IMG/VR virus record: IMGVR_UViG_3300022486_000016
Location: 1 to 19,686 of that record
Strand: one strand, 5' to 3'
DNA length: 19,686 nucleotides
DNA from: a virus
Shown: one piece after another, positions 1 through 19,686 of the stretch
How the letters are laid out: the number at the start of each line of letters is the position of its first letter
How positions within the stretch are numbered: the first letter of the stretch is position 1
The notes under the pieces: generated by a model
What the model saw: the letters and a program-made list of their open reading frames with translations, nothing else
Told to the model about the DNA's origin: nothing
Databases searched by the model: none
Made by a program: the position numbers and the translations under genes

Positions 1-169
1 GGGCTGTAGAAGCGGAAATCGGTTCCCCTCGATAGTCCTGAAATCGTATATCAATTTTTTAAAATTATACCGTGTCTTAAAATCGACTCATTAAAAATTT
101 TGATGTCTATGCTTAGGCGCTTACATGGTCGCGCATATGATGGCGCATAAATAAACGATGGTCTTACGC

Positions 170-198
170 TTGACAATATAGCTAAACGGTGTTATACT
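170..198 (+). promoter_or_regulatory. Early promoter in ITR-L (distal)
   Basis: TTGACA (170-175), 17-nt spacer, TGt extended -10, TATACT (193-198). Near-perfect SigA/sigma70 consensus, directed inward. Confidence 0.75.
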
Positions 199-255
199 TA
201 TATTAGAAATAAGGGATAGCTACTTTAATTATTTGAAATGACTAAGATAAAACGT

Positions 256-284
256 TTGACAAAATGATTGAGGTGTGCTATACT
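256..284 (+). promoter_or_regulatory. Early promoter in ITR-L (proximal)
   Basis: TTGACA (256-261), 17-nt spacer, TGc extended -10, TATACT (279-284). The downstream TATACTTATAGTAAAG is shared with the internal promoter at 18902..18930. Confidence 0.75.
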
Positions 285-335
285 TATAGTAAAGAATATG
301 AAAGGGCTAACTAAAGTTAGCTATGGTTTAATATT

Positions 336-1543: not shown

Positions 1544-2866
1544 TTATTGCTGTGGCGCATTTACGCCAGTCGCTTTTAGGTCTTCAATTTGTTTGACAAC
1601 GTCCGCTGATGCGTCTTTAAGCGCTTTAGCTACGTCCGAGCTAGATGCGCGTGAGTCGATAAAGCGTCCGAAGTCTGCGTCGTTAAGGTTGAGGTGTTTA
1701 GCTCCTGCGGCTTGTAATTGAAGTACCGTGTCCATGTCTCCAATTCCGAAAACGCGGTCATTTACTACTGCTACGTACCCGCTGTCTCCCGTGTGGTTGC
1801 GTGCTACAAAGTCTGTCATGTTGTTTTCCTCCGTTTGTGTATTAATAATATCTGTGTCATCTGTTAGAAAAATTGATTTGTCGAGTCCGCCTGCGATGGC
1901 TGTTGACGTAAATTGCCACGCGATTTGTCCGCTCATATCTGGATTTAGAGGCCAATATGGCTCGGGCGTTATATCATAATTTGGATATGCTGCAATCCAT
2001 AAGCAAGACCCAAAGGTTGCTGTGATTCGATCCGCGTCGACGTTTGCGAGCGTGTAAGGCTTGTATGAGTAATACAGTGGCTTGTAACCAGCGTCCTTAC
2101 AACGTTGCATAAAGTGAATGACTGCTTCCGTGTTTGCGTTTTTGTCTCCGCTTGCGTCGTCCTCATAGTCACATACAAGATATTTGACGTTTGGATATGG
2201 CAAGTTTGACAAAAAGTGTGAGGCTTCTGCGTCCGCTTGCGCTACTGATCCGCCAAAGCGTGCGAAATGATAGTAACCGATAGCGTTTGAGGTTTGCACT
2301 TGTTGCGATGCAACTGGACTAGTCCAGCCCGTGCCTTCGGTTGTTTTGATAATTGTGTCGCGTGTTCCTGCTTGCTCACAAATTCCGCTGAGGTCGCCTG
2401 GTTGGTATGCGCTGACATCCAAAAAATATTTATTTGTACGCTGTGCGCTTGTTTGCGTCAAGCCTTTACGCCTAAAAGCCGTCGGGTAAGTTGCGTCATA
2501 CGGCAATTGTACGATATTGTACACGCCGTCAGGTGCTCCTTGATTTTGCCCGAAAAAGTTGCCGTAGCCGTTGCCCGCGTCGCTGTCAAAAATGGCGACA
2601 TGGCTCACGGGCGTTGCGGGGTGAATTTTGAAAATTGCAATGTCGCCTGGTTGCATGACTTCCACTTCGTCGAAGTTGTCAAGCATGCCGTTTTCATGGC
2701 GCTGTTCCCAGATGTCTTTAGCGTAGCCACTGGCGGTACAGTTTGCATACGGTACGCCCAAATACTGACAATAGTCCGCGTAGCCATCCCAGCACTGATT
2801 CCCGTACCATCCGTCGACATCTACGCCAAGGGACATATGAGAATTTTTATAATCTTGGTAACTCAT
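1544..2866 (-). CDS. Endolysin: N-terminal CHAP, central GH25 muramidase, unrecognised C-terminal domain of about 90 aa
   Basis: CHAP signature: NQCWDG Cys, SHVAIF His. GH25 signature: FLDVSAYQ, CDYEDD, GGLDKSIF. AGGAGG SD before ATG 2866. It is the last gene of the late operon, just after the holin. Confidence 0.9.
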   Translation of the reverse strand: MSYQDYKNSHMSLGVDVDGWYGNQCWDGYADYCQYLGVPYANCTASGYAKDIWEQRHENGMLDNFDEVEVMQPGDIAIFKIHPATPVSHVAIFDSDAGNGYGNFFGQNQGAPDGVYNIVQLPYDATYPTAFRRKGLTQTSAQRTNKYFLDVSAYQPGDLSGICEQAGTRDTIIKTTEGTGWTSPVASQQVQTSNAIGYYHFARFGGSVAQADAEASHFLSNLPYPNVKYLVCDYEDDASGDKNANTEAVIHFMQRCKDAGYKPLYYSYKPYTLANVDADRITATFGSCLWIAAYPNYDITPEPYWPLNPDMSGQIAWQFTSTAIAGGLDKSIFLTDDTDIINTQTEENNMTDFVARNHTGDSGYVAVVNDRVFGIGDMDTVLQLQAAGAKHLNLNDADFGRFIDSRASSSDVAKALKDASADVVKQIEDLKATGVNAPQQ

Positions 2867-3278: not shown

Positions 3279-4358
3279 TCATAGTATTTTAGATATGAGA
3301 GATAACATGTAATTTTTTGCCTCAGCGTTTTCATACCAAATGCAATTTTTTAAATAGCATTGTCTGAGTGTCCACGCGAGATCCGAGCTTCTGTCCATGT
3401 AAATAAGTCCGTTCTCAGATTCCGCTGGGTCTACGCTGTAAATGTCGCGGTGTTTGTCATAGCCTACTTTGACGTAAACAAGACCGTTACAACTGTAACA
3501 AGAGAGCGTGATGCCGTCTATGTACAGCGAATAAAGATAAGTCTTGTCACCCTTGAGCTTCCCGATATTTTTTCCTCGGTCGACTTGAAATTTATTATTT
3601 GCTACTGAGTCGTAAATCTTTGAATCCTTGATAAGATGGTAAATGTCGTCATCCGACGAGCCGTCGAAGGGTTGATTCGGTGGAAACTCAATCAGGATGC
3701 GTCGGTCTTTTAGATTGTAAAAGCGTCGGTCTGTGTTTTCGTAAAACTTGAAATAAGCGAAATATGGATTATTAATATTCGCAGCATTTGACAAGAGGTA
3801 GACGTGGCAGTTTTTACGCTGACGAAATACCGAAATGAGCAGATTTAGAAAAGCCTCTACTTCATTTTTTAAATAGCGCTTATTAGAGCTTGTGTCGATT
3901 AAAACTTCATCAAACATTATAAAGAAAACGTTATCATATTCTGAACCTTTGAGGTTTACCCACGTGCTTAAAGATTTTAAGTAAATGACTACGCGTCCGT
4001 TTAGCATAATTTTACCGCTCGTTATAATAAACTCGCCGTCTTCGTAGCCTTCAAGCGTTGACGTAAATGTTATCTTAGTCTGTGTTCGCGATACGTTCAC
4101 TTCTGCTTCTTCATATCCTGGAAAGATTTGTTCTAACATAATTCGCGGAAAAAAGCTTTCTTTGTCAATACCATCTAACTCTGTTTTATTTCTCCGCAAA
4201 TAGAGTGATTGTTTCCCGTTCTTCACGAACTGTTGTAACAGGTATTTTTTCATGGCGAAAGTCTTTCCGATGTCACGTCCACCAATAACAAAATTTAAGA
4301 ATTGATTATAAGAGAGCATTTTCTGTGGATTGTACCACTCTTTTTTATGTTGTTCCAT
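3279..4358 (-). CDS. DNA encapsidation ATPase (phi29 gp16-like)
   Basis: Walker A GGRDIGKT and Walker B FFIMFDEV. At 359 aa its size is close to phi29 gp16. AAGGAGG SD. Confidence 0.85.
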   Translation of the reverse strand: MEQHKKEWYNPQKMLSYNQFLNFVIGGRDIGKTFAMKKYLLQQFVKNGKQSLYLRRNKTELDGIDKESFFPRIMLEQIFPGYEEAEVNVSRTQTKITFTSTLEGYEDGEFIITSGKIMLNGRVVIYLKSLSTWVNLKGSEYDNVFFIMFDEVLIDTSSNKRYLKNEVEAFLNLLISVFRQRKNCHVYLLSNAANINNPYFAYFKFYENTDRRFYNLKDRRILIEFPPNQPFDGSSDDDIYHLIKDSKIYDSVANNKFQVDRGKNIGKLKGDKTYLYSLYIDGITLSCYSCNGLVYVKVGYDKHRDIYSVDPAESENGLIYMDRSSDLAWTLRQCYLKNCIWYENAEAKNYMLSLISKIL

Positions 4359-4374
4359 GCATGCTCATACCTCC

Positions 4375-7300
4375 TTAATCAAAGTTTCGATAACTGTCCA
4401 AAACGGCTTGGTCGTCCGCGCGGTTAGGGTTTGGCGTGTAAATATCAAACGGCTTAGGCTTAGTATAGTCAAGATATTTAGCTTCCCAGATTCGCACGCC
4501 ACTCGCTAAAATATTTTTAATCATGGCTAAGTCAGATTGTGGCGCTTCAAGTCCGCTCACGTCAGCGCTTGTAAGTTTGATATAATTAAACGCTCGACGG
4601 TTGTAAGCATATTTCAAAACGTCGTTCGATTCGGTTTGATAGATATATCCGTATAAGTGCATATATGTGAGAACAGTTTTGAGTTGCTCTGGATATGGAA
4701 AACGAATGCGGATAAAAAGTCCTTGTTGATAGTTTGATGTTTGGAAGCTAATGTCATTACCCATCTGTTGGATCGAGTCAGGTTGGTTTTGTAAGTCCGT
4801 CATCGTTGCGTTAAATGCGCGGATTTGTTGATCAATTGCCGTTTTAGCTTGCAAGTTTGCGAGCGCTGTACTTTGACTACGTAATTCGTTTTCGTCCTGT
4901 GCAAAAGAGCGATTTACTTTCGCGTTTGTAACGTCCATGAGAGACTGTTGGACGTTGTAATATCCGTTCATTCCAGCTTTTGCGGTGTTGCTGGCTGTTG
5001 ACATAAACTTACCGAGATACGTTTCATCTTTTTTTAACGGACTGAAAATATCGAGAGCGTTTGTCGCTACGTCTACTGTAGCCATGACTCCAGCTTTTCC
5101 ACGCTTGAAAACGCTTTGATCCACGGCAAAATTAGCGCCGTAAATATTTTTGTCATTCGCAAATGACGTCTGGCGGTTATTCATGTCCGCTTGTTGTCTT
5201 TGGAGTGATGCGTTTTCGTTAAAACTTGCCTGTTGCGCCTTAATCTGTGCCGCGTGTCCTTGAATATAAGTCGCGGTAGCGTCGTCCAAAATCGTCAAGT
5301 TTTTACCAGTCGTGTCAAAAATTCCGTATTGCATAATATCCCACTTGGATATAATGTTTTCATCCGCTTTAGCTTTGATTTTAAAGGTTTTATTGTTTTG
5401 GTCTACAATATTATGAGTATGCCCGTAAGCGACTAAGCCTGCAAAATTGTAATTCTGATCTCCTACTGAGCCTAAAAGCATAATGGCTGATTTATTGTAG
5501 TACTTACCGTCTTCGGTCTGAAGATTGTTCAACAATTCCAGCTGATAAGCGTATGTGTTCCCGTAATAATCGTAAAGTTCCACGTCGATAAGTTCGGAAA
5601 TGAGAAGCAATTGATTCGCCATGTGAACGAAACGTTCACCAAGTGTATCTTTAATATACGCTTTTAAGCGTTTTAAGATCTTTGGTTTAAGCTCGTCAAT
5701 CTCGATAAATTTAGGCGCTGCTTTTGGATGCTCGACAATTTTAACAATATAAGCTGCACTATTTGCGCCTCCTGAACCGTCACCGCCTGAGGCGTCACCG
5801 ACTACGTCAGGATTAATCTTACCGCCTGCGAGTACGTCTGGTGGTATGCAAATACTAGAGAGAGCGTCTGCGTGTACGTGCGTGACGACGTGATCGAGCG
5901 TATAGCCGTTGTTACCGTAGTTTTGCTCCACGGTGTGTAAGCTGTGTCCGTCGTAACTAATACAGATCCCCGTGTGTCCTGCTCCACCTGTAACTGTTGG
6001 GCCATAGTTTGGTTTATAGTTAATCATGCAACCTGCGGCATTTTTAAAATCTTCCTCGGATGGGTTAAATTTTACACCCCATCCGCACGATTTCCAATCG
6101 TAGGCGCTACCGATGGCGTAGGCGTTATAAGTGTCACCTATTTGTTTGTACAAATTCCCAACACCTGCACCGAGTCCAGGCGCATCAACGCCAAACTCGC
6201 GGAAGCATTGACAATAATAAGACGAAAGGGCGTAACATTGCCCGTTACCCACGCTTTTATTCGCCATAGCTTTTACTTTTGCGATTACTTTTTCGGTAAC
6301 TTCTGCAGGTTTTGGCGCTGATGTTGTCTTATTGTCCGCGTTTTTTCCTGCGTTGCTGTTATTACTTGCGTCATTAATCACGGCTTTTACAATTGGAACA
6401 AAGCTTTCCGCATACGCTCGACGCTTATCAGCAACTGGAATCCCTGCACGTTCCCAACGTGTCACGAATACATCAGATAAATTTCCTGCGCTGTCATTTC
6501 CTGAAAGGACTGCTTTAGCTGTTTCAGATTCGCCTGGCTCGTTCAAGAGCCAGCCTACTTGCGCTTCTATAGTGTGTTCAGAAATTCCTTTCGAGTGCGC
6601 ATAGTTTCTGAGTCCTTGCGCACGTGTGCTCGTCCACTGCCAAAGTCCAAGACCTGCCGCAACATCGATCGTATAATCCATAGAGCTTTCTTGTTTTGCG
6701 TTTCCTAAAAGTGCGGCGATACCGTTCACAGTCGCAGGTGGATAATTTGCTTTAATGGTTTTGGCGATACGTTCCGCGATTTCTTTTTCACTTCCTGTTG
6801 GGCCTCCAACGGTTACGAGATCCCCCGAACCTCCTGACGGTGCGGCGCTTGATTGACGCCCAACGCCCACAACGTTGAAAATATCGCCATCCGCTTTTTT
6901 AATCTTGACAACGCTTCCGTCATAGTCATAGTCAATACCTAAATAGCGACTATAATACATATTTACAATATTATTAGTCGCAATGTGTTGAGCGTCCGCG
7001 GTGTTGTCTTTTGTTGGACTAATATGTTTACCGCCAACGGTAATCCCAAAGCACTCAAGCAAAATTGTGACAATTGGTTTAGGTGGGTATGTTTGACCAT
7101 CTAGCTCAAACTGTTTCGTCATTTTTCCTGCAATTTCAACAGGTACAAAATAGTATTTTAAACTTTTTTGAGTACCTGAAAATGACATGTCTGAAGCAGG
7201 TGTTCCAGCTTCTCCCTTAAATTTAAACTCTGGCTTAGCTACAATGACAAGCCAATCAACTAAGTTAGCGCCTACGTCATAAATTTCTTCCGTCGCTTTT

Positions 7301-7764
7301 GATCCTACGTTAAAACCTTGCGTGTTCGTGTGTCGTGCTCTGAAATTCTTGTCGTCGCTTGGCAAATATGGCAAATACTGAGCAATAGTTCCGCTGACTT
7401 GCGTATTTTTATTAAAGAGCATGGGTTGATAAGTGTTCCATATATCCAACTCGTAAATAATTTTAGTCGTATTCTCGTTAATGTAAGCGATGTCGTAAAC
7501 GAACGCGTAATACTCTTTACCAGCGTTTTTAAAAAACATGTAAGTCGCTGTCTCAAATTGTTCCTGACGTCCGCTTACGTAGATTTCACCCGTGCGTGAA
7601 ATAAACTGAAAATTATCAGATTCGTAAATCTTTTTAAGATGCGGTGAATCGGTATCAAAATATTTTTGCATCTCAGCGCGATTGTCAAAGTGAATGACGT
7701 TCGCGTAATCGCTACGAAATGGCGATTTTGAGTAAAGTTTAATTTTAGTTGTTTCTTTAACCAA
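4375..7764 (-). CDS. Tail knob protein (phi29 gp9-like N- and C-terminal parts) with an internal lysozyme-like + CHAP peptidoglycan hydrolase cassette, 1129 aa
   Basis: The N-terminus (SPFRSDYANV...YYAFVYDI...ELDIWNTYQ) resembles the phi29 gp9 N-terminus. Residues ~325-460 (LLGNAKQESS...GLGLWQWT...RWERAG) resemble the phage tail lysozyme family. Residues ~500-625 are CHAP-like (GNGQCYAL Cys, GAGHTGI His, EQNYG). Gly-rich linkers flank the cassette. TTG start at 7764, with AAAGGA 11 nt upstream. Confidence 0.8.
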   Translation of the reverse strand: MVKETTKIKLYSKSPFRSDYANVIHFDNRAEMQKYFDTDSPHLKKIYESDNFQFISRTGEIYVSGRQEQFETATYMFFKNAGKEYYAFVYDIAYINENTTKIIYELDIWNTYQPMLFNKNTQVSGTIAQYLPYLPSDDKNFRARHTNTQGFNVGSKATEEIYDVGANLVDWLVIVAKPEFKFKGEAGTPASDMSFSGTQKSLKYYFVPVEIAGKMTKQFELDGQTYPPKPIVTILLECFGITVGGKHISPTKDNTADAQHIATNNIVNMYYSRYLGIDYDYDGSVVKIKKADGDIFNVVGVGRQSSAAPSGGSGDLVTVGGPTGSEKEIAERIAKTIKANYPPATVNGIAALLGNAKQESSMDYTIDVAAGLGLWQWTSTRAQGLRNYAHSKGISEHTIEAQVGWLLNEPGESETAKAVLSGNDSAGNLSDVFVTRWERAGIPVADKRRAYAESFVPIVKAVINDASNNSNAGKNADNKTTSAPKPAEVTEKVIAKVKAMANKSVGNGQCYALSSYYCQCFREFGVDAPGLGAGVGNLYKQIGDTYNAYAIGSAYDWKSCGWGVKFNPSEEDFKNAAGCMINYKPNYGPTVTGGAGHTGICISYDGHSLHTVEQNYGNNGYTLDHVVTHVHADALSSICIPPDVLAGGKINPDVVGDASGGDGSGGANSAAYIVKIVEHPKAAPKFIEIDELKPKILKRLKAYIKDTLGERFVHMANQLLLISELIDVELYDYYGNTYAYQLELLNNLQTEDGKYYNKSAIMLLGSVGDQNYNFAGLVAYGHTHNIVDQNNKTFKIKAKADENIISKWDIMQYGIFDTTGKNLTILDDATATYIQGHAAQIKAQQASFNENASLQRQQADMNNRQTSFANDKNIYGANFAVDQSVFKRGKAGVMATVDVATNALDIFSPLKKDETYLGKFMSTASNTAKAGMNGYYNVQQSLMDVTNAKVNRSFAQDENELRSQSTALANLQAKTAIDQQIRAFNATMTDLQNQPDSIQQMGNDISFQTSNYQQGLFIRIRFPYPEQLKTVLTYMHLYGYIYQTESNDVLKYAYNRRAFNYIKLTSADVSGLEAPQSDLAMIKNILASGVRIWEAKYLDYTKPKPFDIYTPNPNRADDQAVLDSYRNFD

Positions 7765-12112: not shown

Positions 12113-12772
12113 TCACCACACTTGTAAAAAGAGCGGTTCCAAAATGTTGAAGATTTCAAAAGTGAGGTCTTCCATTTGCGCGAGTTGGTTGTAACGCTGA
12201 GCGAGTTGACCGCCTGCCCATCCGTGCGTATAGCTGTGGTGGTCTTCCTTGCCTTTTGCGTTACCCTCACCGAGCGCATTTGCGTAATCTATTGCGCCGT
12301 ACTTTTGGTCGTGGTCGTTGTCATAAGTTATGCTTAAGTGTTCTTGTGGTGTCGTGTTTGAAATCGATAAAGTGTGACTGTCATTTTTAGAGCTTCCGTC
12401 GTTATACATGCTGGTATCTTGATTCATTTGATCAAGTGACATGTTTTTAAGCGTGTCACGGACTTTAAACAAATTGAGACAGTCCGTGTTTAATTCTTGC
12501 TCTAAAAATACCTGGAAGCGTGCGAACGTCTCGAAACCGATTTCGCGATTATAGAAACGCTGACAAAAGAGTTTTTTAAAGTCGTCATCGACGTACTTAT
12601 TTAAGTGCATGTCTTTAAATAGCTCATTAAATGTCTGGTCAATAATGACATTATAGTGTAAAAAGTCGCCGTTTTCGTCAACTGCCAAACCGTCAAGATT
12701 TCCTGTAATCGGATTACGATACCGAGATTTTAAAAATTGCTCAATTGTTACTGTTGTGTTGTTTTGTGTCAT
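12113..12772 (-). CDS. Lower collar protein (phi29 gp11-like)
   Basis: FYNREIGFETFARF resembles the conserved lower-collar motif as I remember it. It sits directly after the connector gene, as in phi29. GGAGG SD. Confidence 0.65.
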   Translation of the reverse strand: MTQNNTTVTIEQFLKSRYRNPITGNLDGLAVDENGDFLHYNVIIDQTFNELFKDMHLNKYVDDDFKKLFCQRFYNREIGFETFARFQVFLEQELNTDCLNLFKVRDTLKNMSLDQMNQDTSMYNDGSSKNDSHTLSISNTTPQEHLSITYDNDHDQKYGAIDYANALGEGNAKGKEDHHSYTHGWAGGQLAQRYNQLAQMEDLTFEIFNILEPLFLQVW

Positions 12773-13806
12773 GGCTGTAAACCTCCGTCCGCGTTGTCGT
12801 CGAGATTTTCGGTGTTTAAGTCTTTCTCAACATCCGCAAAGTTAAAGCGTTGCACCCATTCAGCAGGCTCTACGTCAATATTTAAGCCGTAAGCTTCATT
12901 AATACGTTTCACCGCGTTTCGACGAGATTTCCAACCTACCTCAATATTAGCTGAGATAATTCCTGCGTTAGAAATTGCTTCAGCAGTAACTAAGCGCTCA
13001 GCTTTGTCCACTGGATTATTATTAATACCTATAAATGTTAAGAGCTGATTGATCACTCGGTTTTTTTCGTCGTGTAACTTATCCAAGAGATACGGAGCCT
13101 CAGTCCTAAAGACTTTAATTCTGTCGTCTAACTGTTGGAAGTCTGCTGTCCCTGCGGCGTTCTTTTGCGTGTTAGCGTAAACGACAGGCTCAAAGCTCTG
13201 GATCTTGTTAAAAATATTTTTTAAACTTAATACAGATTTTTCATCAGCTAAGACAAAGAACGGAGTGACTTGAGCGTTGCGGTTTAATTGAATAGTCATT
13301 TCAATATCTGCGAGCTTTTCGCAATAGAGGTGGATATAGTCCAGATATGGCTCAAATAAGTTATTATTCGGAATAACGATACAAGGTTTGTCCGTCCGTG
13401 TCTCATCATGCATTTTTTGGAGTAAGTCAAAATCCCTTTTACTGTACGCGATTTGCATTTTAGGGAATCGCATCTGCTGAGCCGCGTTAACAGGTAAGTA
13501 CGTCGTCGGATAGTCGTAAATGTTTAACTCTTGCCCGCGTGTGCCTCCTTGGACGACATATCCGAGCTGTTCGTCTTCGAAAAATGCAACGTGTCCATTT
13601 TCCAAAAGCTTACGCTCTATAAAGAGCTCATCAAGGTCATTCGGTAAATTGTACCAAGAGAAGTAGTTTACGACAATGTCATAAAAGTAATTAAAGTAAA
13701 AGTTATACCATGCTGTACGATTACGGTCGACGGTTGTTTTACTGTGTTCAATGCGTCCTAAAGTTTTTGTATATTCCTTGAGACTGTGATAATTTACAGT
13801 ATTCAA
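12769..13806 (-). CDS. Head-tail connector / portal (upper collar, phi29 gp10-like)
   Basis: By-eye matches to phi29 gp10: RNRTAWYNFYFNYF versus RNRWFIHYLNYL; LNRNAQVTPFFV versus VNQNAQKTPVLI; FRTEAPYLLDKLHDEKN versus FKTDAPYVVDKLNAQKN; INEAYGLNIDV versus INELYGLNVKV. TTG start, 7 nt after GAGGA. Confidence 0.85.
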   Translation of the reverse strand: MNTVNYHSLKEYTKTLGRIEHSKTTVDRNRTAWYNFYFNYFYDIVVNYFSWYNLPNDLDELFIERKLLENGHVAFFEDEQLGYVVQGGTRGQELNIYDYPTTYLPVNAAQQMRFPKMQIAYSKRDFDLLQKMHDETRTDKPCIVIPNNNLFEPYLDYIHLYCEKLADIEMTIQLNRNAQVTPFFVLADEKSVLSLKNIFNKIQSFEPVVYANTQKNAAGTADFQQLDDRIKVFRTEAPYLLDKLHDEKNRVINQLLTFIGINNNPVDKAERLVTAEAISNAGIISANIEVGWKSRRNAVKRINEAYGLNIDVEPAEWVQRFNFADVEKDLNTENLDDNADGGLQP

Positions 13807-13879: not shown

Positions 13880-14977
13880 TTAGTCTTCCACGTAGAACAT
13901 GTGGATGTTTTCGAAAAGTGAAAGGCTAGTAAGGTAATGGTGATGGTAGAAGTAGTTATAAGACATAGTCTTTGGATTGCGGATGCTTTCCATGTGTACT
14001 AATTTGTCCTTTAAGATAATCGAGTTCTTAGATACTAAGAAAGCAACTGGACGGCGTCCGTTATTTTGTCCAGCTCCTGTGAACTTGTCAAAGAAGTCGA
14101 CAACAATTTGACGAGCTTGGACTGACGCTTTATCCATGTTGAAAGCGTTAGCAAGCATGAGGTCGATATCAGTTGAGTATTCAGCGTCGATAATCAAATA
14201 TTGATCTTCGAGTGGCGTCGCATTAGGTACACCTACTGGATTATTTGAATGAGCTTTATCACGCGAAGGGATTGTAAACTGTTTAGATTTCGCGATGATG
14301 TCCTTCACCATTTCCTCAATATAGTTATTATGAGTCGTGTCGACTTTAGTACCTGCTACCGTGATTTGGTGAGCTGTACCAGCGTTATCTGTGTAAGTAA
14401 CCTCAGCGAGTGAGTCGTTAAGCACTTGTTTAACTGCTGCATATTCATCGAGCGTGTCTGAGCTAATCAAAGATGTGAACATTTTGTCAATAAATTCATC
14501 AAATGCCATATCTGAGGTAAAGGCTTTTTGAACCCAGGCACGTTCGAAAGTACGATCGTAGCGGTATTCGTTGTTCAACTTGTGATAAAAGACTTCGATA
14601 TCTGTATCAGCGAAAGCGAAAGGATGTCCGTTGTCTTTTGCGTTAAAGTTGTTACGTTCCGCAGGTGCGACGTAAATTTCTTCCAACGTATCACCGAACT
14701 CGAAAATTTCAGATTTAAAAATAGCGAGTGGGTTTTCATAAGTCAAAGCCTTCACGACAACTGATCCAATACGGTTAATCAACTGTTCAAAAAATTCATT
14801 TTCATGAACTTGAAATTGTTGTACAGGGATATTACTGTGGTTGATAGCGCCTTTAAGTACAGGAATGTCAGCCCGATAAGCATTTGAAGCTTTTTCACGG
14901 ATGGCGTTTAAGAGGTCGATGTTGCTTACTGTTTGTCCCGTTTCATGAGACATAAAGCGTGTAATTTTATTGCTCAT
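13880..14977 (-). CDS. Major capsid protein (phi29 gp8-like)
   Basis: By-eye matches to the phi29 gp8 N-terminal half: DLLNAIRE versus DIVNAIRN; RIGSVVVKA versus RIGLVVIRQ; NPLAIFK versus NPLKKFK; TLEEIY versus TIEEIY. AAGGAG SD. Confidence 0.85.
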   Translation of the reverse strand: MSNKITRFMSHETGQTVSNIDLLNAIREKASNAYRADIPVLKGAINHSNIPVQQFQVHENEFFEQLINRIGSVVVKALTYENPLAIFKSEIFEFGDTLEEIYVAPAERNNFNAKDNGHPFAFADTDIEVFYHKLNNEYRYDRTFERAWVQKAFTSDMAFDEFIDKMFTSLISSDTLDEYAAVKQVLNDSLAEVTYTDNAGTAHQITVAGTKVDTTHNNYIEEMVKDIIAKSKQFTIPSRDKAHSNNPVGVPNATPLEDQYLIIDAEYSTDIDLMLANAFNMDKASVQARQIVVDFFDKFTGAGQNNGRRPVAFLVSKNSIILKDKLVHMESIRNPKTMSYNYFYHHHYLTSLSLFENIHMFYVED

Positions 14978-15569: not shown

Positions 15570-15601
15570 ATTATAATAACACAAGACAACAAATATGTCA
15601 A
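15570..15601 (-). promoter_or_regulatory. Late-operon promoter (P-late)
   Basis: On the - strand: TTGACA (15601-15596), a 17-nt spacer ending TGt, then TATTAT (15578-15573). This overlaps TATAAT (15575-15570). The SD and scaffold start follow. About 45 nt are paralogous to the promoter at 15966..15997. Confidence 0.75.
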
Positions 15602-15606
15602 GTGGC

Positions 15607-15635
15607 TTGACACTTTTAATGGTTTGTGTTAAGAT
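15607..15635 (+). promoter_or_regulatory. Plus-strand promoter divergent from P-late
   Basis: TTGACA (15607-15612), 17-nt spacer with TGt, TAAGAT (15630-15635). Its -35 and the P-late -35 together form the palindrome TGTCAAG-tgg-CTTGACA (15596-15612). Confidence 0.65.
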
Positions 15636-15641
15636 AATAAT

Positions 15642-15788
15642 ACAAGAAGCACCGATTGTGATTGACGTATAGCGTCTGGACGATTACGCATTGAGTTGCG
15701 CCTGACGCTTTCGCATCTTAATCACATGCTCTGTCAGTCGCTCTCGATTCGTTTCTTCAAACAGTTTCCTTACGGAAGCTGTTTTTTT
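15642..15788 (+). ncRNA. Candidate small RNA A (~147 nt)
   Basis: Bounded by the + promoter and a + terminator. Nested helices: AAGAAGC (15644-50) / GUUUCUU (15751-57); UGUGAUU (15657-63) / AAUCACA (15720-26); AGCGUC (15671-76) / GACGCU (15704-09); CGCA (15687-90) / UGCG (15697-15700). Two G-U pairs exist only in the + sense. No SD-led ORF is present. Confidence 0.55.
15759..15788 (+). terminator. Intrinsic terminator of candidate RNA A
   Basis: ACAGTTTCC-ttac-GGAAGCTGT, 9 bp including one U-G wobble that would be an A-C mismatch on the other strand, followed by T7 (15782-15788). Confidence 0.7.
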
Positions 15789-15794
15789 ATATAT

Positions 15795-15824
15795 AAAAAA
15801 TCCCCTTAGACATCTCGTCTAAGG
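15795..15824 (-). terminator. Intrinsic terminator of candidate RNA B
   Basis: On the - strand: CCUUAGAC-gagau-GUCUAAGG (15824-15804), then GGAUUUUUUAUAU. It converges 3'-to-3' with the RNA A terminator across the spacer T7-ATATAT-A6. Confidence 0.6.
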
Positions 15825-15960
15825 AGTAGTAGTGGTAGAGCTAAATTTGATAGATAAATAAGAAAGAAAGGAGATTTTATGATTTAATAAGAAAGGTGGT
15901 ACTTCATATAGTAAGACTCGTGTAATTTTGTGAGATAGACGCTCTACCTTGCCTATCTCT
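15795..15960 (-). ncRNA. Candidate small RNA B (~165 nt), pRNA-like size
   Basis: Bounded by the late-type promoter at 15966..15997 and the terminator at 15795..15824. It has a 5' hairpin GAGAUAG/CUAUCUC (15959-53 / 15938-32). A 5'-proximal GGUAGAGC (15948-41) pairs with a 3'-proximal GCUCUACC (15841-34). The AU-rich core holds two anti-SD-like tracts (CCACCUUUCUU, UCUCCUUUCUUUCU). There is no credible ORF. Confidence 0.5.
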
Positions 15961-15965
15961 GTACT

Positions 15966-15997
15966 ATTATAATAACACACTAAGGCAAATACGTCAA
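15966..15997 (-). promoter_or_regulatory. Late-type promoter paralog (drives candidate RNA B)
   Basis: On the - strand: TTGACG (15997-15992), 17 nt ending TGt, TATTAT/TATAAT (15974-15966). The string CTTGAC(G/A)TATTTG...TGTGTTATTATAATAGTACA is shared with P-late. Confidence 0.7.
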
Positions 15998-16009: not shown

Positions 16010-16037
16010 AAAAAAAGAGCGTTTTTTATAAACGCCC
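16010..16037 (-). terminator. Intrinsic terminator T2 (second copy of a duplicated terminator module)
   Basis: On the - strand: GGGCGUU-uauaaaa-AACGCUC followed by U7. The G-U pair exists only in the - sense (A-C mismatch in the + sense). It shares the 17-nt identity TACAAAAAAAGAGCGTT with 16089-16105. Confidence 0.65.
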
Positions 16038-16091
16038 TGACGATTCCTGAGTAGTGCCAGTAACTCTAACGCGTACCACTAAAAACAGTAC

Positions 16092-16120
16092 AAAAAAAGA
16101 GCGTTGCACTACTAACGCCC
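16092..16120 (-). terminator. Intrinsic terminator T1 (ends the early operon and candidate RNA C)
   Basis: On the - strand: GGGCGUU-aguagugc-AACGCUC followed by U7. It is the first terminator after the polymerase stop codon. Confidence 0.7.
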
Positions 16121-16163
16121 CGATTTTAGCGATACTCTGCGAGGCAATACCACTTAACCTCAC
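16092..16163 (-). ncRNA. Candidate small RNA C (~70 nt; ~155 nt if it reads through to T2 at 16010)
   Basis: It lies between a perfect-consensus promoter (16170..16198) and T1. There is no ORF (ATG ATG TGA only). Confidence 0.45.
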
Positions 16164-16169
16164 ATCATT

Positions 16170-16198
16170 ATTATAGCAAAACTTTAAAAAATTGTCAA
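16170..16198 (-). promoter_or_regulatory. Consensus promoter overlapping the polymerase stop codon
   Basis: On the - strand: TTGACA (16198-16193, containing the polymerase TGA stop), 17-nt spacer ending TGc, TATAAT (16175-16170). Confidence 0.7.
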
Positions 16199-17811
16199 TA
16201 GTCAAAATCATCAATGGCTTTAATTTCAAAAGTTGTCGTGACAATGGACATACCGCCACGGCGACCAATCATTTTTTTGAGACCGTCGAACTTTTGACCA
16301 ACTTTGAAATTTTCAAAGGTTACTTGTTTCTTTACAGCGTCCGTCATGCCTGCTACCTTGACGTGGAGTGAGCCGTCAGTTTTTTGGATAGCGTAGCATT
16401 TTTGACGGATATATTTAAAGCGAGTTCCTGTAACTTCGAGATCAAATGCACCGAGTTTTTTTGCGTCGACCTCAAATTTTACATTTTTAGTCGTTAAGTG
16501 TACCGCGTCGGTATCACTGTAAACAAAGTTATCACGATGCATTAGAGCGATTGATACAATATAAGTACGAGCAATAGACGCGATTGCGGCAGTCATTGGC
16601 GCATAAATCGCTTTTACAAATGTATCGCGTCCGTTTTCATAGACCACACGTCCTGTCGTTTCATCGATGCGAGGATCTTTGCTTGTTAAACGAGTTTTAG
16701 CGCCAAACTTACCGTAAAGACTCACAAGCATAGCTTTCGCGTGTTGACGGCTAAAAGGAGTCGATGCCTCTTGTTTTTCAGCGTAGTATTTATTTACATA
16801 CATATCAAACAAACCGCGAGCACCTGCAAATGTTACCTGTTTAAAAAATACAAAATCCACAACGTCGTAACTTTTCAAGAAAAGCTGATATTCAGTCCAG
16901 GACATACAAAACGTAGAGCGTCCTTTAGTTTCATAAATCAGATGTCCTTCTTGACACATGCTATTCTCTGTTTTCGCAAACGGGAAAAATCCGTCCTTTA
17001 ATTCAAATTCACATTCAAAGCTAACAAACGAAACTTGAGACTCTAAAGGAGCTTTAGGCTTTGTTGTATTGATTTCGACAGGCTTGCCGTAAGGGAGAAC
17101 AGCGGATTTTTGGATAAAAGCGTACATACTATTAATATCAAAAACGTTGATTTCACCTTTGATGTCTTTGTTTACATATTTAGGAACGATGTAATTCCAA
17201 CCCGATTTATCAACCTCACGACAAAGTTTATCGACATCGTCTGGCAACTGTGGAAAGTAGCTGTCAAAGGCGTAGCCTTGCTGTTTCATAATTTGTTTAA
17301 ACTCATACAAAGCCTGAGAAGCATTAGTAAAACGAACGTATTTACCAGCTACGAAATATTCTTCAACCGCTTTACAAAAGACATCGATATCGCTACCCGA
17401 AAGCTTAAAGGTCTCACGCATGGCGTCAACACCGCCATCAAAAACTTTTTTAAAGTCTTTAATCTCAAAGCGGTAATCATTCACATAGAAACGCAACTCG
17501 TAAAACTCTAAGCCAATCTGTGTATCATACTTAATACCGTTCTCGATAAAATATGCGACAAATGTATTAGTAACTTCAATTAAGCTAGGAACAAAAAGCG
17601 TATGTACTGTGTTTGTATCATTAAGCCCTTGACCTACCCAAGCTTTTAAAAATGCACCAATGCTTTCGAACGTTGTAGCAGAAGTAGTAAGACAACGTTT
17701 AAACGTTATGCTATTAAGTGTAACGCTTTGAACGTCTTCACTGACCATGTCCGCCACTGCCGCATAGTACGTGCGGTCAGTGCGGTTCTTTTTATTATCT
17801 GTGGTATTCAT
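16195..17811 (-). CDS. Protein-primed family-B DNA polymerase (phi29 gp2-like), 538 aa
   Basis: Motif A VFDINSMYAF, motif B AKAMLVSLYGKFGAK, motif C FVYSDTDAVHL, KxY motif RQKCYAIQ. The C-terminal AGMTDAVKKQVTFENFKVG is almost identical to phi29 AGMTDKIKKEVTFENFKVG. See the findings for the missing exonuclease residues. Confidence 0.95.
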   Translation of the reverse strand: MNTTDNKKNRTDRTYYAAVADMVSEDVQSVTLNSITFKRCLTTSATTFESIGAFLKAWVGQGLNDTNTVHTLFVPSLIEVTNTFVAYFIENGIKYDTQIGLEFYELRFYVNDYRFEIKDFKKVFDGGVDAMRETFKLSGSDIDVFCKAVEEYFVAGKYVRFTNASQALYEFKQIMKQQGYAFDSYFPQLPDDVDKLCREVDKSGWNYIVPKYVNKDIKGEINVFDINSMYAFIQKSAVLPYGKPVEINTTKPKAPLESQVSFVSFECEFELKDGFFPFAKTENSMCQEGHLIYETKGRSTFCMSWTEYQLFLKSYDVVDFVFFKQVTFAGARGLFDMYVNKYYAEKQEASTPFSRQHAKAMLVSLYGKFGAKTRLTSKDPRIDETTGRVVYENGRDTFVKAIYAPMTAAIASIARTYIVSIALMHRDNFVYSDTDAVHLTTKNVKFEVDAKKLGAFDLEVTGTRFKYIRQKCYAIQKTDGSLHVKVAGMTDAVKKQVTFENFKVGQKFDGLKKMIGRRGGMSIVTTTFEIKAIDDFDY

Positions 17812-19368: not shown

Positions 19369-19402
19369 CTGGAGATTTTCTCCTTTCATATTCTTTACTA
19401 TA

Positions 19403-19431
19403 AGTATAGCACACCTCAATCATTTTGTCAA
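19403..19431 (-). promoter_or_regulatory. Early promoter in ITR-R (proximal), mirror of 256..284
   Basis: Exact ITR copy: TTGACA (19431-19426), 17 nt, TATACT (19408-19403) on the - strand. Confidence 0.75.
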
Positions 19432-19488
19432 ACGTTTTATCTTAGTCATTTCAAATAATTAAAGTAGCTATCCCTTATTTCTAATATA

Positions 19489-19517
19489 AGTATAACACCG
19501 TTTAGCTATATTGTCAA
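19489..19517 (-). promoter_or_regulatory. Early promoter in ITR-R (distal), mirror of 170..198
   Basis: Exact ITR copy: TTGACA (19517-19512), 17 nt, TATACT (19494-19489) on the - strand. Confidence 0.75.
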
Positions 19518-19686
19518 GCGTAAGACCATCGTTTATTTATGCGCCATCATATGCGCGACCATGTAAGCGCCTAAGCATAGACATCAAAATTTTTAATGAG
19601 TCGATTTTAAGACACGGTATAATTTTAAAAAATTGATATACGATTTCAGGACTATCGAGGGGAACCGATTTCCGCTTCTACAGCCC

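Follow-up and report, generated by a model that had tools for sequence, protein, structure and literature searches.

What does a short plus-strand RNA do when its gene lies between the early and late operons of a small linear phage? The question is raised by the IMG/VR virus record IMGVR_UViG_3300022486_000016, a DNA of 19,686 nucleotides that was analysed over its whole length and is called the window below. At positions 15607 to 15788 it holds a transcription unit for a structured RNA, referred to as RNA A, for which the original prediction offered three functions: a prohead or packaging RNA (pRNA), an antisense insulator, or a part of the early/late switch. Our analysis indicates that RNA A is likely to be the pRNA of this Cp-1-like phage. 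This function is favoured by a topology like that of the pRNA of phage phi29, a covarying pairing between a bulge and the loop of the D hairpin, near-invariant unpaired bases that, apart from the terminator U tract, are almost all located in the kissing segments and the E loop, and the presence of connector and ATPase genes. The insulator and the switch gained no specific support and leave the three-way junction and the covarying loop pairing unexplained; either may be a secondary role of RNA A.

The elements of the RNA A gene, all on the plus strand, are as follows.

15607–15635, plus strand: promoter of RNA A, with the −35 box TTGACA (15607–15612), a 17-nt spacer, the −10 box TAAGAT (15630–15635) and a TG at 15627–15628
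15642–15788, plus strand: RNA A transcript, ~147 nt, comprising domain I (RNA nt 1–116) and then the terminator hairpin
15644–15667 with 15732–15757, plus strand: A helix in three segments (7, 3 and 10 bp) with two small internal loops (RNA nt 3–26/91–116)
15671–15679 with 15701–15709, plus strand: C helix (RNA nt 30–38/60–68)
15680–15686, plus strand: 7-nt 5' bulge ACGAUUA (RNA nt 39–45), the counterpart of the CE ('right-hand') loop of phi29
15687–15700, plus strand: E hairpin CGCA-UUGAGU-UGCG (RNA nt 46–59)
15713–15729, plus strand: D hairpin, 4 bp (RNA nt 72–88)
15717–15725, plus strand: D loop CUUAAUCAC, 9 nt (RNA nt 76–84), the counterpart of the D ('left-hand') loop of phi29
15759–15784, plus strand: terminator hairpin (RNA nt 118–143)
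15759–15788, plus strand: intrinsic terminator, formed by the 11-bp stem at 15759–15784 and the T7 tract at 15782–15788

Folding of the 149-nt RNA from 15642 to 15790 gave a minimum free energy (MFE) of −50.2 kcal/mol, compared to −33.6 ± 3.6 kcal/mol for shuffled sequences (z = −4.64), and none of the 200 shuffles folded as well. The A helix closes a three-way junction, the two arms of which are the C/E arm and the D hairpin. Its outermost part joins the start of the RNA to the segment before the terminator, as had been drawn by eye (RNA nt 3–9 pair with 110–116). The bulge segment GAUUA (15682–15686) and the D-loop segment UAAUC (15719–15723) are exactly complementary.

Homologues of RNA A are far more widespread than nucleotide similarity reveals. 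The RNA was detected by blastn in only nine close relatives (83–97% identity), and a covariance model (R1) was built solely from these ten window-clade sequences, that is, RNA A and its nine blastn relatives. R1 gave full-length matches at 43 further loci of other clades that were not seen by blastn (E = 1e-6 to 1e-10), among them Cp-1 at 4652–4804 on the minus strand. With R2, a second covariance model of the family, a full-length homologue was found in 74 of the 74 viral contigs holding the region and, additionally, in 21 metagenome contigs, one genome-collection contig (L088; loci are designated by L numbers) and the isolates Cp-1, Cp-7, and SOCP. The metagenome and genome-collection matches are every fetched locus with a major capsid protein (MCP) identity of at least 67%; those from the genome collection are contigs of metagenome-assembled genomes only and therefore carry no host information. 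The homologues always occupy the interval from the last early gene to the scaffold gene and run against the direction of both genes, and the loci without an R2 match end before this region. The same ~89 IMG/VR contigs came back from each of three MCP-based scans, for which different queries were used, so that the sampling of the RNA family in IMG/VR is essentially complete. The counterparts in Cp-1 and Cp-7 fold with z = −5.5 and −5.4, respectively, and have the same architecture as RNA A.

The transcription signals are conserved as well. In the window, the TG-extended promoter was found by a consensus scan exactly where it had been proposed, with 10 of 12 consensus matches in addition to the TG, and it is also legible in the sequence. 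The late promoter, located by the same kind of scan at 15601–15573 on the minus strand, stands back-to-back with it as described, and the two −35 boxes form the palindrome TGTCAAGTGGCTTGACA. A start near 15642 and a terminator ending at 15788 agree with the proposed length of ~147 nt and with the hairpin followed by T7; the last three U of the terminator stem continue into the T7 tract. Across all clades, a sigma-A-type promoter (TTGACA/TTGTTA, ~17 nt, TATGAT/TATAAT/TAAGAT) precedes the RNA at a fixed distance, and a U tract follows the terminator hairpin in every homologue.

Conservation of the helices in related genomes had been named as a check on the original prediction; all seven helices were found to be kept and to covary. 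The counts were taken from a model-fitted alignment of 63 distinct sequences, in which 96.9% of the cells are standard pairs, compared to 70.1% in shuffles and 38–48% with slid partners. Changes on both sides occur at 43 of the 46 base pairs. The A helix (helices 1–3) is 93–98% paired and shows compensatory changes at 16 of 18 pairs, the C helix (helix 4) has changed on both sides at all ten of its pairs, and the terminator hairpin covaries at nine of ten. Three independent checks were run because this alignment had been fitted to the model. MFE folds of single sequences gave a common architecture for most of 46 distinct sequences, the exceptions being a few window-clade sequences and L071. 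From an alignment of 17 divergent representatives made with MAFFT only, the terminator, part of the A helix and the C/E arm including the 7-nt bulge were recovered, with compensatory change in 23 of the 26 predicted pairs.

The pairing between bulge and D loop behaves like a code that is rewritten on both sides at once. All 63 distinct sequences have a complementary bulge and D loop with at least five contiguous pairs (G-U allowed), and 50 of them have six Watson-Crick pairs. The combinations, bulge first, are distributed as follows.

(U)GGUUA with UAACC(A): 47 distinct sequences, Cp-1 clade and L017
GAUUA with UAAUC: 8 distinct sequences, window clade, L012 and L013/14
GGUAA with UUACC: 4 distinct sequences, L015/16/19 and L011
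GAUUG with UAAUC (wobble): 3 distinct sequences, window clade
GAUUA with UGAUC (wobble): 1 distinct sequence, L004

L239, found in a later metagenome scan, likewise combines GGUAA with UUACC. On a structure-blind alignment of 17 sequences, the five core kissing pairs were 100% paired, compared to 6–49% in slid controls. Covariation is seen at two of the five, with G-C replaced by A-U in 7 of 17 sequences and U-A by A-U in 3 of 17. Non-cognate combinations among the three code types yield only 2–5 Watson-Crick pairs. We infer at least two origins for the GGUAA/UUACC code, since it is found in two clades, and their nearest sisters have GGUUA/UAACC (L017) and GAUUA/UAAUC (L012) instead.

The invariant bases of the 63 distinct sequences fall into the same segments. 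They comprise G15682 and U15684 in the bulge, U15719, A15721, C15723, and A15724 in the D loop, and A15694 and G15695 in the E loop. Outside these three elements, the near-invariant positions are the terminator U tract, the junction U at 15732 and two paired positions only. In phi29 pRNA, these three elements form the prohead-binding and multimerisation domain (PMC5066667).

When phi29 pRNA (EU771092, 147–320, minus strand) was folded, it showed the same order of elements as RNA A: A helix, three-way junction, C helix, 5' bulge, E hairpin, short junction, and D hairpin. The phi29 molecule has a 9-nt bulge with AACC, a UUU junction, and a D hairpin with GGUU. In both RNAs, domain I of ~116–120 nt is followed by a 3' hairpin, so that the terminator hairpin of RNA A is the positional analogue of domain II of phi29 pRNA. 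The E stem has 4 bp and a 6-nt loop in both, and the loop UUGAGU is identical in phi29 and the window. Complementarity between bulge and D loop, with covariation, is likewise common to phi29-family pRNAs and RNA A, and the GGUU:AACC duplex of the Cp-1 clade is the same as that of phi29. The strands of the kissing duplex are swapped, however: in the RNA A family the bulge contributes GG and the D loop CC, the reverse of phi29. The duplex measures 5–6 bp in the RNA A family compared to 2–5 bp in Bacillus pRNAs (PMC4201828). The hosts are streptococci for the RNA A family and Bacillus for the phi29-family pRNAs.

As a side observation on the E loop, the octamer AUUGAGUU of RNA A (loop and closing pair, 15690–15697) is identical in phi29 pRNA (L087), the two RNAs being otherwise without detectable similarity, and the loop reads YYAAGG in the other clades of the family.

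Both RNAs are encoded by small protein-primed podophages that carry genes for a gp10-type connector and a gp16-type ATPase. In the window, these are the following.

12769–13806, minus strand: phi29-type head-tail connector, gp10 homologue (PF05352, E = 7e-104)
3279–4358, minus strand: phi29-type DNA encapsidation ATPase, gp16 homologue (PF05894, E = 4e-47)

The window connector is ~32% identical to gp10 of phi29.

How specific this layout is within the genome was assessed with a descriptor written solely from the phi29 topology, the third of the independent checks on the fold. A match had to contain an A helix (10 bp or more) and a three-way junction, a 5' bulge of 5 nt or more in the first arm, a hairpin loop of the same minimum length at the end of the second arm, and no fewer than four Watson-Crick pairs between bulge and loop. 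On both strands of the whole window, RNA A was the sole match. The descriptor also found the real phi29 pRNA with its known AACC/GGUU pairing, and the Cp-1 orthologue together with one weak false match inside a coding region; on ~150 kb of other phi29-like sequence, it found nothing except the family member in L256. A phi29-style pRNA at the end of the genome was considered separately and rejected: the transcript expected from the annotated outward promoter in the Cp-1 repeat was not significantly structured (z = −0.9), and the descriptor gave no match at the window ends.

If RNA A is indeed a pRNA, its mode of action can be outlined by analogy to phi29. The host sigma-A RNA polymerase would transcribe it from the strong promoter divergent from the late promoter, and the intrinsic terminator would end the transcript. 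The first ~116 nt would fold so that the long A helix closes the three-way junction, with the C/E arm carrying the 7-nt 5' bulge and the D hairpin its 9-nt loop. The bulge GAUUA of one molecule would then pair with the D loop UAAUC of the next; intermolecular pairing of this kind would give a ring of identical RNAs, which is proposed to assemble head to tail on the empty prohead, at the narrow end of its connector. The window connector is thus the presumed docking site of the ring. The A helices would point outward as spokes and dock the gp16-like ATPase, their presumed partner, which would pump the terminal-protein-capped DNA into the head, and RNA A would depart after packaging. Binding to the prohead and a requirement of RNA A for packaging are both expected from this scheme.

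Several points weigh against the assignment as pRNA. The case is wholly computational: it is made up of conserved transcription signals, a covarying fold on a defined strand, covarying complementarity between the loops, and the connector and ATPase genes. The window clade, with GAUUA/UAAUC, lacks the GG/CC kissing pair, which is found in the phi29, BFSP1, vB_BceP_LY3, and GA1 pRNA groups (PMC12670572). The RNA A gene separates the early from the late operon and runs antisense to them, whereas that of phi29 pRNA lies at the left end, downstream of A1. The related lactococcal phage asccphi28 is reported to package its DNA without a pRNA (PMC7823558), and a phi29-type motor alone therefore does not imply one.

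The profile searches belong to the same side of the balance. RF00044 (Phage_pRNA), the Rfam model of the phi29-family pRNAs of the Bacillus phages phi29, PZA, M2/Nf, B103, SF5, and GA-1 and the Goe4 and DLc1 groups, found no match in the window or the Cp-1 genome, even at E ≤ 10 over the locus; the positive control phi29 scored 145 bits at a gathering threshold of 100 bits. Rfam searches of the window at the gathering threshold and at permissive settings returned chance-level matches only and no pRNA. In the other direction, R2 with filters off gave only a misaligned match of 8.7 bits on phi29, so that sequence homology to phi29 pRNA is not demonstrable. RNA A is not a member of RF00044 and would need a family of its own.

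Lastly, the two loops could conceivably pair within one molecule as a pseudoknot, which leads to the best-surviving alternative: a structured RNA with a bulge/D-loop pseudoknot that serves some function other than packaging, such as a decoy for a host factor, replication, or transcription. Covariation proves the pairing and is silent on whether it forms within or between molecules, and the missing sequence homology to known pRNAs and the genomic location unlike that of phi29 also count in favour of such an RNA. On the other hand, the order of the elements, the bulge in the 5' strand of the C/E arm, the sizes of the helices, and the motor genes all match pRNA, and to our knowledge this layout is unique to pRNA among the known classes of phage RNA. 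In phi29, moreover, the same arrangement pairs between molecules (PMC4201828). We thus consider the pseudoknot unlikely and the packaging RNA the better account of the fold.

A mainly regulatory RNA seems still less probable. As antisense RNA or convergent-transcription insulator, it would block or process transcripts that run on from the early operon or RNA B (a second small unit, described below) into the late operon, or its promoter would compete with the late promoter. Any such transcript entering the late operon would be complementary to RNA A, the promoters of RNA A and the late genes stand back-to-back in the window and apparently overlap in the Cp-1 clade, and in Cp-1 the terminator hairpin lies 5 nt past the stop codon of orf7. 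The RNA B terminator was also located by the consensus scan at 15826–15802 on the minus strand, converging on that of RNA A as had been claimed. Antisense action, however, needs complementarity and not a conserved three-way junction. The sequence has diverged beyond detection by blastn, yet 43 of the 46 pairs and the loop code were kept by compensatory change, which is the signature of a structural RNA. Any insulator effect could be a side effect of the position of the RNA A gene, whose product we continue to regard as a likely pRNA.

With regard to the promoters themselves, the RNA and late promoters of the Cp-1 clade (L081, Cp-1 4800–4840) appear to overlap such that each −35 box lies inside the spacer of the other, within the inverted repeat ATCATACTTG...CAAGTATGAT; in the window clade (15573–15635) they are merely back-to-back. 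With such an overlap, RNA polymerase could occupy only one of the two promoters at a time.

The strand of the functional product was inferred from the wobble pairs. Two G-U pairs on the plus strand had been pointed out initially; their assignment to this strand is correct, but the count was too low, as RNA A contains five (15649/15752, 15659/15740, 15662/15737, 15667/15732, and 15765/15778). Across the 63-sequence alignment, G-U pairs number 345 and A-C pairs 14. This fixes the strand, since the 345 would be mismatches on the other one. Together with the conservation and covariation in ~95 relatives, the asymmetry upholds the initial view of a functional structured plus-strand RNA over chance symmetry.

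That the functional product is instead the transcript of the opposite, late-gene strand, or the small open reading frame (ORF) at 15726–15809, is highly improbable: the Cp-7 late-strand promoter and 'terminator' bracket the segment, the Cp-1 start PL1 (4740) lies inside it, and a good fold, if a poorer one than that of RNA A, is also obtained for the reverse complement (−42.6 kcal/mol, z = −2.6), but the 345 to 14 ratio of G-U to A-C pairs rules this strand out, the U tract follows the hairpin on the RNA A strand only, the Cp-1 opposite-strand promoter is apparently unconserved in the window, and frameshifts or truncations affect the ORF in close relatives, where a ribosome-binding site would also be needed but is lacking in the window. 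Conservation of this 27-codon ORF would have spoken for a coding function. The ORF is not conserved: its C-terminal part is frameshifted in L001, L006, and L008, it has 23 codons in L004/L005 and stops after two codons in L002/L009, and it lacks a Shine-Dalgarno sequence; the coding hypothesis was consequently rejected.

The public records of the isolates bear on the same locus. In Z47794, NC_001825, LK392619, and KJ617393, neither an RNA nor a minus-strand promoter is annotated at the RNA locus, and the signals given there are all on the opposite strand. The Cp-7 record (L083, LK392619) places the late-strand promoter and 'terminator' that bracket the RNA segment at 4860–5033; this 'terminator' falls on the inverted repeat that surrounds the divergent promoters. 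The Cp-1 RefSeq entry (L086, NC_001825) has a late-strand promoter and the mapped start PL1 inside the RNA gene, at 4699–4740. PL1 could be a real internal promoter or a stop of the reverse transcriptase at a structured region.

The literature holds one earlier trace of such an RNA. 'The pRNA of Cp1' is attributed to Martin, Lopez and Garcia, J Virol 1996, in a study whose covariance model, derived from Bacillus phages, was unable to find the Cp1 pRNA reliably (PMC6266182). If the RNA of 1996 is that at Cp-1 4652–4804 on the minus strand, RNA A is simply its orthologue. In reviews of 2016 and 2024, pRNA is presented as a peculiarity of phi29 and its relatives among the Bacillus phages (PMC5066667, PMC11476376), and a 2025 Infernal survey seeded with Bacillus-phage pRNAs mentions neither Streptococcus nor Cp-1 (PMC12670572). 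We therefore rate RNA A as a streptococcal pRNA lineage that is supported by covariation and curated nowhere among the records checked, and not as a new kind of RNA.

On balance, we lean slightly towards a pRNA that is ancestral to the motor of protein-primed podophages. The streptococcal lineage (Cepunavirus and relatives) would then be a second, deeply diverged branch, in which the junction and the kissing ring were kept, the gene was relocated, and the strands of the duplex were swapped. This branch would be missed by current pRNA models, and its RNA may differ in locus or strand from what the annotators of Cp-1 and Cp-7 had in mind.

pRNA is a workhorse of RNA nanotechnology. It is also described as the sole natural RNA known to form a functional ring of identical molecules (PMC4201828). 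A second lineage unrelated in sequence, with ~95 sequences from streptococcal phages, would help to define which features of pRNA are essential, be it the junction, the E loop, or the kissing duplex with its particular length and polarity, and would supply three natural orthogonal kissing codes. The covariance model is ready for the annotation of Cp-1-like genomes. The ancestry of pRNA in phi29-type motors would become testable in a tractable host-phage pair, S. pneumoniae with Cp-1 or SOCP, and the family bears on claims of pRNA-free packaging in relatives such as asccphi28.

Beyond the family, the search for pRNA-like RNAs in more distant phages remained negative. Neither R2 nor the MFE-based descriptor found one in L255–L270 (except L256), L170, L089, and L090, the MCPs of which are 24–48% identical; this negative is weak, given short flanks and a strict descriptor. 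No match was obtained with either tool in asccphi28 or Enterococcus phage CUB-FM, again a weak negative owing to short flanks and a descriptor that depends on the MFE fold. In asccphi28 (L092, EU438902), an annotated outward promoter P1 and terminator T1 enclose ~300 nt of non-coding sequence at 23–401, repeated at the right end; this segment lies within the 577-bp inverted terminal repeat, at the position of the pRNA in phi29, and the descriptor found no pRNA topology in it. The human gut contig L255 (UOJE01002140, MCP 48%) has a 530-nt AT-rich non-coding region (1–530) upstream of the scaffold gene, with several promoter-like boxes and two hairpins that have the common core GTCAAGAGAC. No pRNA-like fold was found there by R2 or the descriptor; the contig ends at this point, and an RNA gene may be cut off.

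The window itself is a complete linear genome of a Cp-1-like phage of the phi29 type. Besides the connector and the ATPase, the following genes were assigned by Pfam.

13880–14977, minus strand: phi29-type MCP
4375–7764, minus strand: tail-knob/lysozyme fusion
1544–2866, minus strand: CHAP and GH25 lysin
16195–17811, minus strand: protein-primed type-B DNA polymerase

The MCP is 67–70% identical to those of Streptococcus phages Cp-1, Cp-7, and SOCP and ~30% identical to those of Bacillus phi29-like phages. As a blastn search of the RNA A locus against 50,697 phage records additionally gave zero matches, the phage is a new relative of Cepunavirus. The orientation of the window is reversed compared to the Cp-1 map. 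Its minus strand carries both the early (polymerase) and the late operon, and three short genes at the left end are transcribed in the converging direction. The RNA A gene, in the interval that separates the polymerase operon from the scaffold gene, is ~3.9 kb away from the nearer end of the genome and is overlapped by no annotated gene. The bidirectional terminator of the original prediction was located at 1494–1520. That RNA A is the only plus-strand unit to the right of it fits the ORF map, in which each plus-strand ORF sits within a longer minus-strand ORF.

RNA B is a second small transcription unit at window ~15795–15997 on the minus strand, running from a promoter at 15997–15969 to the terminator at 15826–15802. 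Its promoter is a near-duplicate of the late promoter (common TGTGTTATTATAATAGTACA), and the RNA carries a CU-rich stretch, CUCCUUUCUUUCU, that resembles an anti-Shine-Dalgarno sequence. As a second structured RNA it was rejected, since its fold was not significant (z = −1.4) and it occurs only in the window clade, where it is kept at 90–94% (nine close relatives among L001–L010). It is absent from the Cp-1 clade, whose whole intergenic region spans ~220 nt.

The first and last ~304 bases of the window (1–304 and 19383–19686) are perfect inverted terminal repeats, compared to 236 bp in Cp-1, and the genome ends are presumably capped by terminal protein. Each repeat contains inward-facing consensus promoters. 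Downstream of the polymerase operon, two tandem intrinsic terminators on the minus strand (16121–16098 and 16038–16016, region 16016–16121) overlap a listed 80-codon ORF (16026–16268), which is probably not a gene.

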